The notes: generated by a model from the sequence alone, not told the origin. Counted from the first letter of the stretch, positions 8,005 through 9,769 are shown. The stretch is DNA of 64,000 nt from Escherichia coli O157:H7 (GCF_013167455.1 NZ_CP038328.1), one strand, 5' to 3'. Program-made: numbers and translations.

Positions 8005-8200
8005 ACCATACTGATGTGTTGACATCCTCCAAGCCCTGAAGGACGTGGATCCCTGCTACGTTCAGGCTGTCGCCTGAATCATTTCGGTGGGTTCCTGCTT
8101 CAACGGGCGGCCTGACTGCACCATCTCCCCACAGGCAAGAACGGCGTGCCCCGCCGCTAAAATGTTACGAGCGCCATTTACATCAGCGTTCGCTGTATAT
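7985..8200 (-). ncRNA. putative TnpB guide RNA (omega-RNA/reRNA): scaffold from the tnpB 3' end and right-end region plus a roughly 16-20 nt guide from the flank
   Basis: Inferred from IS200/IS605 TnpB biology; right-end hairpin at 8029-8048 and a perfect 7-bp hairpin overlapping the tnpB stop (8061-8078) lie in the expected scaffold; extent is approximate and no RNA evidence exists. Confidence 0.35.
8029..8048 (-). repeat. right-end subterminal imperfect hairpin
   Basis: Top strand ccacgtcc-ttca-gggcttgg; same architecture and core as the left-end hairpin. Confidence 0.55.
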
Positions 8201-9270
8201 CCACATGCCTGGCATCTGAATTTACTTTGTGACAGGCGATTTTCTTTCGCTGTATGACCACAGCACGCGCAACGCTGGCTTGTGTACGCTGGCGGAACAG
8301 CAAGCACCTGACCGCCACGCCAGAGCTGCTTGTACTCAAGCTGGCGGCGCATTTCATACCAGCCCTGATCCAGTATCGAACGGTTTAAACCTGATTTTGC
8401 CCGGACATTGCGCCCCGGCTGGCTGACCGTACCCGCTGCTGACTTTGACATGTTGCTGACCTTCAAATCCTCAATGACTATCATTGCGTGGTTTTTGCTG
8501 ACGGTCGTTGTGACTTTGTGAAGGTAGTCCCTGCAGATATTTGCGATACAGGAATGCAGTCGCTGTATTTTGCGTTTCTGCTTCTGCCAGTTGTTGCTGA
8601 ATTTGACCTTGCGGCTTAACTGTCGCTGAAGTCTCGCCAGCGTCTTCTGGTTTTTCTGAAAACTGTTTACAGGTCCAAAGACTGTGCCATCTGACAGCGT
8701 GGCGAGTTTAGCCACGCCAGCATCCAGTCCGACCATTAATGCTGAAGGGTGAACCGGAGTTGATACTTCATTTTCAGTCTGAATACTGATGTACCACTTA
8801 CCGCAGGACTGGCTGGCAGTGACATTTTTCACAACACCCGTGACCTGACGGCTATTCCGGTAGCGCATCCAGCCAAGTTTCGGCAGAAAAATACGGCTGT
8901 TTTCCTGATCGAGCTTAACGCCCTGCGGGTAGCGGAATGCATCATTCTGTCCCCGCTTTTTGAATCGGGGAAAAGCAGCCCGCTTCCGGAAGAAGTTTTT
9001 GTAAGCCCGCTCAAGGTCTTTCAGTGACTGTTGCAATGGCTGTGACGGGGCATCTTTAAGCCATTGCGTTTCAGTGGCATTTTTCCACTCAACCAGCCAG
9101 GAAGCCATTTTCCCGTAAGGGATGTATTTATTACCGGCCTCATGATTCTCATTCTGAAGCGCCAGAGCACGATTGAAAACGAAACGACATGCGCCTGCGA
9201 AGCGCCTCATTTCACGCTCCTGTTGACCACCGGGTCTTAACTGGAATTTAAATGCCTGTAGTCGTTTCAC
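8062..9270 (-). CDS. tnpB: TnpB (OrfB) of IS200/IS605 family: RuvC-like nuclease with C-terminal zinc finger (402 aa, GTG start)
   Basis: N-terminus [12 protein letters not shown]; RuvC-I GLDAG (Asp183), RuvC-II IVIEDL (Glu267), zinc finger CACCGH...CQACGY, Ruv[13 protein letters not shown] (Asp363). Confidence 0.9.
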
Positions 9271-9277
9271 AGGCCAA

Positions 9278-9709
9278 ATGATACTTTGGTCTGTGAAAAA
9301 AGAAACCGATATCCGGCGTGGAAGGCATTGTGTTTTCCTGATGCATGTTCACCTGGTCTTTGTCACCAGATACCGACGCCAGATTTTTGACCATGACGCG
9401 ACAGAAAAACTACGCACTTACTTTTCAAAGGTATGTGCTGATTTTGAAGCTGAACTGGTTGAAATGGATGGCGAACCAGATCACGTCCATTTGTTAATTA
9501 ACTATCCTCCCAAACTGGCGATATCCAGTCTGGTAAACAGCCTCAAAGGCGTATCGGGTAGGTTACTGCGACGAGATCGACCAGATATTGCAGTCAGGTA
9601 TTACTACAAAGGCGTTTTGTGGAGTCCTGGCTATTTTGCCAGTAGCTGCGGAGGTGCGCCAATATCCGCCATCCGTCAATACATTGAACAACAGCAAACA
9701 CCTGGTTAG
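9278..9709 (+). CDS. tnpA: TnpA, IS200/IS605-family HuH Y1 transposase (143 aa)
   Basis: HuH motif DHVHLL; catalytic-Tyr region [26 protein letters not shown]; start codon 7 bp from the divergent tnpB start. Confidence 0.85.
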
Positions 9710-9730
9710 GTGGAAAACCGCGCCGTATAT

Positions 9731-9750
9731 CCCCGCCCTGAAGGACGGGG
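9731..9750 (-). repeat. left-end subterminal imperfect hairpin
   Basis: Top strand ccccgtcc-ttca-gggcgggg: 8-bp stem with one T.G position and a 4-nt loop, 19 nt inside the inferred left end. Confidence 0.55.
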
Positions 9751-9769
9751 TTTTACGGCGCACCGGATA

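Follow-up and report, generated by a model that had tools for sequence, protein, structure and literature searches.

The window analysed here, a stretch of 64,000 nucleotides of Escherichia coli O157:H7 DNA (GCF_013167455.1, NZ_CP038328.1), carries at positions 8019..9766 on the minus strand one copy of IS609, an element of the IS200/IS605 family that is 1748 bp long, has divergent tnpA and tnpB genes, and is already catalogued rather than new. The top strand of the element is the minus strand of the window and runs 5′-CCGGTG...GGATGTCAA-3′; its limits are given by the annotation of the Sakai genome, by empty sites and by seven insertion sites. The 1765-bp stretch outlined in an earlier note, made from the sequence alone, is shared at 100% identity by dozens of E. 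coli O157:H7 chromosomes, Sakai and EDL933 included, and the Sakai record holds a repeat_region, ‘IS609 Family: IS200/IS605’, that corresponds exactly to window 9766..8019. Identity with the named element was judged against this annotated Sakai copy, which has the same limits and is 100% identical. The window copy is the same element as the IS609 reference (IS605c subgroup), with the same TTAT and TCAA cleavage sites as published, and RefSeq names the two genes ‘IS200/IS605-like element IS609 family transposase’ and ‘RNA-guided endonuclease InsQ/TnpB’. The proposal of the earlier note that an IS200/IS605-type element with subterminal hairpins at its ends lies here was borne out by the TnpA profile match, by the paired hairpins on one strand and by the relatives of the element. 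Taken as a whole, IS609 inserted in ytfA, with single-strand transposition via its end hairpins, is the best explanation of the locus, and we put its probability at about 0.93. The consequence is mostly one of annotation hygiene, namely the exact limits of IS609, its TTAT target and its guide tetranucleotides, and leaves the understanding of the family unchanged.

tnpA occupies positions 9278..9709 (plus strand) and is transcribed toward the left end of the element. It is intact, starts with ATG and encodes a Y1 HUH transposase of 143 aa that matches profile NF033573 (transpos_IS200) with 145.7 bits, against a cutoff of 55. H69-V-H71 and Y135 of the protein align with H64/H66 and Y127 of IS608 TnpA (2a6m), to which it is only moderately similar overall (E = 7e-19). 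tnpB (insQ), at positions 8062..9270 (minus strand), is also intact and encodes an RNA-guided endonuclease of 402 aa that matches NF040570 (guided_TnpB) with 378.8 bits. Residues 3-376 align with TnpB of ISDra2 (8h1j, 8bf8; E = 1e-52), the RuvC residues D183, E267 and D363 align with the ISDra2 catalytic residues, and the CxxC...CxxC zinc motif is kept. The Sakai record starts tnpB at an ATG at 9210, which has a good AGGAG upstream; we rejected this start in favour of the GTG at 9270, since the alignment with ISDra2 TnpB begins at residue 3. Because the alignment supports the GTG at 9270, the 7-bp gap described in the earlier note stands: seven bases separate the GTG of tnpB from the ATG of tnpA. 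The earlier note placed both promoters inside coding sequence, which is a logical suggestion; in a consensus scan, the three sigma-70-like sites of the region, where 1.6 are expected, were all irrelevant, none lying near the junction of the two genes. Literature searches found no experimental work on IS609 TnpA or on the TAM or omegaRNA of InsQ.

Ends, target and insertion site

The element interrupts ytfA, a TetR-family pseudogene whose parts we mapped via the alignment from K-12 ytfA (4427694-4428095). The part upstream of the insertion occupies positions 9767..10060 (minus strand), and the part downstream of it occupies positions 7911..8018 (minus strand) and overlaps the end of ytfB; PGAP annotates TetR fragments at ytfA in other genomes. 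The site is empty in strain 85.0412 (...CTGGTTTATCACATCAGTATGG...) and in K-12 MG1655, in which a single position, 4427988, corresponds to both 9766 and 8018 of the window. The empty joint reads GGTTTAT|CACATCAG, that is, ...GGTTTAT|CACATC.... The empty sites alone leave a one-base (C) ambiguity in the ends of IS609, which we settled with seven independent E. coli sites (ytfA, ydcL-ydcO, yedK, yeaR-yeaQ, a DUF3251 gene, a yfeC-like gene and yhgE-hslO). Since TTAT directly precedes CCGGTG at all seven, and since the base that follows GTCAA varies over them (c, t, c, g, t, g, t), the ends of IS609 are at positions 9766 and 8019. An element shifted inward by a single base (CGGTG..., with TTATC as target) is ruled out by this variable base and by the ytfA junction, GTCAA|CACATC. 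We conclude from the empty sites and the seven insertion sites that IS609 is inserted 3′ of TTAT and that target duplication is absent. The target, which is also the left cleavage site (CL, 5′-TTAT-3′), lies here at positions 9767..9770 (minus strand), in flanking DNA outside the element. The ends agree with Table S1 of PMC9956272, which gives TTAT as the left and TCAA as the right cleavage site of IS609.

The earlier note had placed the ends at 9769 and 8005, which is 3 nt off on the left and 14 nt off on the right. The alignment with an empty site that it had proposed gave different junctions, an outcome that counts against its version of the boundaries; the element is shorter than claimed, not longer. 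IS609 does occur as a discrete unit in other genomes, at the ytfA site and at six other E. coli sites. IS609-related copies are present in 5014 of 5426 complete E. coli genomes, and 1699 of the 5426 carry the ytfA insertion; the copy that K-12 carries between ydcL and ydcO shares 97-98% identity with the window copy. A second IS609 place is reported in each O157 record. The window is collinear with K-12 4373030-4436016. IS609, which the earlier note took to be the only interruption of this synteny, is indeed the only insertion, but there are two further discontinuities: at window 51709-51897, ~187 bp stand in place of K-12 yjeN-yjeO, and ~141 bp are extra in K-12 at window 62575-62593.

End hairpins and guide sequences

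The two end hairpins of the earlier note are present on the minus strand in the same orientation, and, as is usual in the IS200/IS605 family, the element lacks terminal inverted repeats. The left hairpin (IPL, CCCCGTCC-TTCA-GGGCGGGG) lies at positions 9731..9750 (minus strand) and starts 16 nt inside the left end of the element; the right hairpin (IPR, CCACGTCC-TTCA-GGGCTTGG) lies at positions 8029..8048 (minus strand). Both contain the identical 12-nt core GTCCTTCAGGGC, as stated before, and this core occurs nowhere else in the 64-kb window, where it is expected 0.19 times with up to one mismatch. Stem pair 3/18 differs between the ends as stated, being C-G in the left hairpin and A-T in the right one. 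Two features of the stems had been overlooked: pair 6/15 is T·G in both, and pair 4/17 of the right stem is a C·T mismatch, the right hairpin being weakened in this copy because stem position 17 (window 8032) has changed from G to T. The left end, as single-stranded DNA, folds as claimed, with -9.6 kcal/mol.

In IS608, crystal and biochemical data show that TnpA binds such end hairpins; the left cleavage site, TTAC, lies 19 nt 5′ of the left hairpin foot and that on the right, TCAA, is found 10 nt 3′ of the foot of the right hairpin; the guides, AAAG (left) and GAAT (right), each lie 5′ of their own hairpin foot; and guide bases 1, 2 and 4 pair with positions -3, -4 and -1 of a cleavage site, respectively (PMC3201880, PMC5934647). 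IS609 is similar in many of these respects. A 4-nt sequence lies directly 5′ of each hairpin foot, AAAA on the left (positions 9751..9754, minus strand) and GGAT on the right (positions 8049..8052, minus strand), and by analogy with IS608 we predict these to be the left guide, GL, and the right guide, GR. The right hairpin is followed by the 10-nt tail AGGATGTCAA (positions 8019..8028, minus strand), which ends in the right cleavage site (CR, TCAA, 8019-8022), such that cleavage is 10 nt 3′ of the hairpin foot, as in IS608. Also alike are A-10 and G-9 directly 3′ of IPR, the bases that form base triplets in IS608; the AT that lies 3′ of IPL; a Y1 TnpA with HUH motif and Tyr; hairpins on one strand; and insertion 3′ of a tetranucleotide without duplication.

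There are also clear differences between the two elements. The left spacing is 16 nt in IS609 (9766-9751), compared with 19 nt in IS608. The earlier note had given exactly 19 nt, as in IS608, because it had misplaced the left end, and it missed the IS608-like spacing on the right because the right end had been set 14 nt too far out. The target and left guide are TTAT and AAAA in IS609 but TTAC and AAAG in IS608; thus, target base -1 and guide base 4, C:G in IS608, are T:A in IS609, having changed jointly. The right guide is GGAT rather than GAAT, and its pairing with TCAA would consist of C:G at -3, A:T at -1 and, at -4, T·G rather than T:A. The stem has a T·G pair where IS608 has an extrahelical T. 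Finally, tnpA and tnpB are divergent in IS609 but co-directional in IS608. IS605 and IS606 of H. pylori (IS605c organisation) have divergent genes, as does IS609, and the left cleavage site of IS606 is also TTAT (Table S1, PMC9956272); their right cleavage site is TTCA, whereas that of IS609 is TCAA, and host and sequences differ too.

A scan of one genome per species gave 80 loci with TnpB at 58-94% identity, from Enterobacterales, Burkholderiales, other Proteobacteria and one short contig labelled Streptomyces. The hairpins of these relatives were located at homologous positions. Their right ends are strikingly uniform: the predicted right guide reads GAAT (34 loci) or GGAT (seven loci), followed by the hairpin and then by the AGGATGTCAA tail, which is kept in 43 relatives and identical in 39 of them. 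With left ends placed by analogy, not from empty sites, the target and left guide were TTAC and AAAG in 13 loci, TTAT and AAAA in eight, and TGAT or TTGAT and CAAA in 12; some relatives of the IS609 clade hence use an ISDra2-like target, T(T)GAT, with CAAA as GL. To judge by these sequences, target and left guide covary, and each of the three classes fits the IS608 pairing scheme. The covariation argues that the IS608 logic of guide and cleavage site is upheld across the IS609-like clade of Proteobacteria.

The stems covary as well. Among 62 distinct left-end and right-end hairpins, double changes occur at seven of the eight stem pairs (44 cells); the observed covariation was reached by none of 500 shuffles and collapses in shifted registers. 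The proportion of positions that are paired, 95.6%, is circular, since the hairpins were chosen for pairing, whereas the compensatory changes are not. This comparison of sequences indicates that the stem structure is maintained at the family level through compensatory changes. The earlier note had argued from pair 3/18 that structure rather than sequence is conserved. The first part of this holds, seven of the eight pairs covarying in relatives; the second does not, since the sequence CCCCGYCC-TTYA-GGGCGGGG is also conserved across Proteobacteria.

By homology with IS608, IS609 would move by single-strand ‘peel and paste’. A dimer of the Y1 TnpA would bind IPL (9750-9731) and IPR (8048-8029) on the top strand. 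GL (AAAA) would pair with CL (TTAT), which lies 16 nt upstream of IPL and belongs to the left flank, and GR (GGAT) with CR (TCAA), the last four bases of the element, 10 nt downstream of IPR. The element would then be excised as a single-stranded circle and reinserted 3′ of another TTAT without duplication. This chemistry we infer from IS608.

Mobility of the O157:H7 copy

The right end of the O157 copy differs from that of the K-12 copy in the way that it folds. As single-stranded DNA it takes an alternative weak fold of -4.5 kcal/mol (z = -0.9), and the claimed hairpin is not the minimum-energy structure, whereas the K-12 right end has the canonical fold, with -7.7 kcal/mol (z = -2.9). The position of window 8032 is a G in nine other E. 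coli copies, three at the ytfA site and six elsewhere. Since the G-to-T change is absent from all of these, the O157 copy being the only one of those read to have it, it looks derived and lineage-specific. The O157 copy is thus a natural mutant of the right-end stem, and the change may lower its mobility.

Of the ten E. coli IS609 copies that we read, every one has an intact tnpB, and seven have a defective tnpA: an identical TTA-to-TGA nonsense codon recurs at three different sites, K-12 among them, and an identical loss of the start codon at four. The K-12 IS609 copy has never transposed in mutation-accumulation lines, which fits its broken tnpA. In the O157 copy, unlike that of K-12, tnpA is intact, and the left end is the commonest left-end hairpin sequence, unaltered.

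These data bear on a reading in which the O157 copy is an immobile relic, its right end inactivated by the G-to-T change or by other changes, such that its hairpins are merely historical. The loss of the canonical right-end fold and the G at the mutated position in all nine other copies are as this reading would have it, and the insertion is fixed at the ytfA site in all O157:H7 and O55:H7 records listed. However, both genes and the left end are unimpaired, and a single mismatch in an 8-bp stem may be tolerated by TnpA. We consider an immobile relic a serious possibility, though somewhat doubtful; it concerns the activity of one copy, not the identity of the element, which we take to be IS609 with single-strand transposition via its end hairpins.

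The IS609 alleles at ytfA differ from each other ~20-fold more than do their flanks (30 differences in 1748 nt versus 1 in 1200 nt). A more speculative proposal, which we think rather improbable, is that the O157 copy is a ‘locked’ IS609, beyond excision by TnpA but still making a working TnpB-omegaRNA complex, and that the ytfA alleles diverge as they do because resident copies in natural E. coli are often replaced or undergo gene conversion. If true, a ‘locked’ copy would be an early step toward domestication of TnpB. The O55:H7 copy possibly also has intact genes, an unaltered left end and the G-to-T change.

The right end as a predicted omegaRNA

TnpB proteins use an RNA, the omegaRNA (reRNA), which in ISDra2 comes from the 3′ end of tnpB and the right end of the element, and which we would expect likewise in IS609. 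Apart from this likeness, the target and TAM of ISDra2 is TTGAT, whereas that of IS609 is TTAT, and its tnpA and tnpB are co-directional rather than divergent. We derived a consensus structure with RNAalifold for the 170 nt upstream of the right end in 33 relatives. It has 29 pairs, 19 of them with compensatory changes, in a region that is partly coding, and comprises a stem in the 3′ coding region of tnpB, a very variable hairpin across the stop codon, and the terminal hairpin. This conserved structured region resembles the expected omegaRNA scaffold, which we predict to occupy positions 8019..8156 (minus strand), overlapping the 3′ end of tnpB and running to the right end. The right-end hairpin would thus double as the last stem of the omegaRNA.

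The flank directly 3′ of the right end (positions 8003..8018, minus strand; 16 nt, CACATCAGTATGGTTT) is the predicted guide; by the published TnpB mechanism, the RNA of this copy would carry CACAUCAGUAUGGUUU. Directed by the right-flank guide in this RNA, and with TTAT serving as TAM, TnpB would cleave the site that excision leaves empty, favouring retention of the element. The empty ytfA allele is TTAT+CACATCAGTATGG, a TAM followed by a matching target; since TTAT precedes the guide-matching sequence, this allele would be the expected homing target. These results could aid the prediction of TAM and guide for InsQ/TnpB of E. coli.

A search of positions 7600-10200 against Rfam gave nothing above the gathering score. 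The only matches, both below threshold with E ~0.9, were a right-end one to HgcC (16.6 bits) and a left-end one to sot0042 (14.6 bits). HgcC and sot0042 are archaeal RNAs associated with TnpB genes, and the part aligned in both matches is the hairpin sequence CCCCGYCC-TTYA-GGGCGGGG.

The hairpins might be kept mainly for roles in RNA rather than as DNA sites for TnpA, the right one as the terminal stem of the omegaRNA and the complement of the left one as an intrinsic terminator of tnpA. Consistent with this, the right-end hairpin is part of the structured region between the 3′ end of tnpB and the right end, a region that covaries, and on the plus strand the left-hairpin complement (9731-9750) stands 22 nt after the tnpA stop codon and is followed by TTTT; moreover, covariation is the same for pairing in DNA and in RNA. 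However, the motif is the same, in the same orientation and on the same strand, at both ends; the T·G pair, which is conserved, can be accommodated on the top strand, whereas on the complement it would become C·A; the left-end site was not called in the terminator scan; and crystal and biochemical data for IS608 show TnpA bound to such hairpins. We therefore regard exclusive or predominant RNA roles as very unlikely; most likely, DNA and RNA roles are both present at the right end.

As to the reading in which the hairpins are generic terminators or GC-rich palindromes due to chance and have no relation to the ends of the element, hairpins of right-end quality do number ~46 per strand in the 64-kb window, such that the right hairpin is significant only by its shared core, its position and its homologues, but this reading, to which we give almost no credence, is refuted by the restriction of the identical 12-nt core to the two ends, by the hairpin position beside a GAAT or GGAT guide and the AGGATGTCAA tail, kept in dozens of relatives, and by the covariation of the stems.

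State of tnpA and tnpB among IS609 copies

We compared ten IS609 copies from E. coli, namely the O157 copy (window 8062-9709) and those at loci L003-L008 and L092-L094 of other genomes. All ten retain an intact tnpB gene of 402 aa, and tnpA is broken in seven. Two of the tnpA lesions recur in identical form at different chromosomal positions: the same TTA-to-TGA nonsense codon is found at three sites, and the same loss of the tnpA ATG at four. This pattern implies either that IS609 is mobilised in trans or that gene conversion occurs among its copies.

Among the copies at the ytfA site are those of strains EC9952 (L092) and CFSAN027346 (L093). 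Between L092 and L093 there is a single differing position in 1200 nt of flanking sequence but 30 across the 1748 nt of the IS609 copies themselves, and the state of tnpA is not the same in the two. The resident IS609 at ytfA appears to have undergone a replacement or conversion that was independent of the flanking DNA.

Hairpins and end motif

Of the copies read, that of O157 alone has a G-to-T substitution within the right hairpin, at window position 8032 (stem position 17). The O157 right end is predicted to adopt an alternative fold (-4.5 kcal/mol, as compared with -7.7 kcal/mol for the K-12 copy), and in this folding model the canonical right-end fold is lost through the substitution.

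At the other end, the complement of the left hairpin is followed by TTTT on the plus strand (window 9731-9754), 22 nt past the tnpA stop codon. This segment may double as a weak intrinsic terminator of tnpA; a terminator scan made no call at window 9731-9754 (+).

In Rfam, HgcC (16.6 bits) and sot0042 (14.6 bits) gave matches below threshold, on the minus strand at window 8006-8125 and 9730-9834, respectively. The portion aligned in these matches consists of the hairpin CCCCGCCCUUyAGGGCGGGG and GAGGAGGUCA. HgcC and sot0042 are archaeal RNAs associated with TnpB genes, so the end motif would be common to bacterial and archaeal elements.

A plasmid of E. coli MBT-5 carries a tnpB gene with 94% identity (L009), and no tnpA is annotated with it. 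The right hairpin of L009 is paired throughout (CCACGCCC-CGAA-GGGCGTGG); the guide reads GAAT, and the last bases of the tail are GTCAC, not GTCAA. L009 looks like a diverged, plasmid-borne relative of IS609.

The ytfA locus and other differences from K-12

In strain 85.0412 (L002), the TetR/AcrR gene at the ytfA locus, compared with window 9767-10060, is full-length (215 aa), and its neighbour is a 3-ketoacyl-ACP reductase gene in place of yjfZ. Given this full-length gene, ytfA of both K-12 and O157 is 5′-truncated, a change already present independently of the IS609 insertion.

Elsewhere, approximately 187 bp at window 51709-51897 lack a K-12 alignment; the K-12 counterpart is a 743 bp segment with yjeN and yjeO (4385304-4386047). 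K-12 also has approximately 141 bp of additional sequence in the yjeJ-epmB interval (4374465-4374607), at window 62575-62593. The two alignment blocks that meet there share 19 nt of the window, and this overlap suggests either a deletion between short repeats or the insertion of a small repeat element in K-12.
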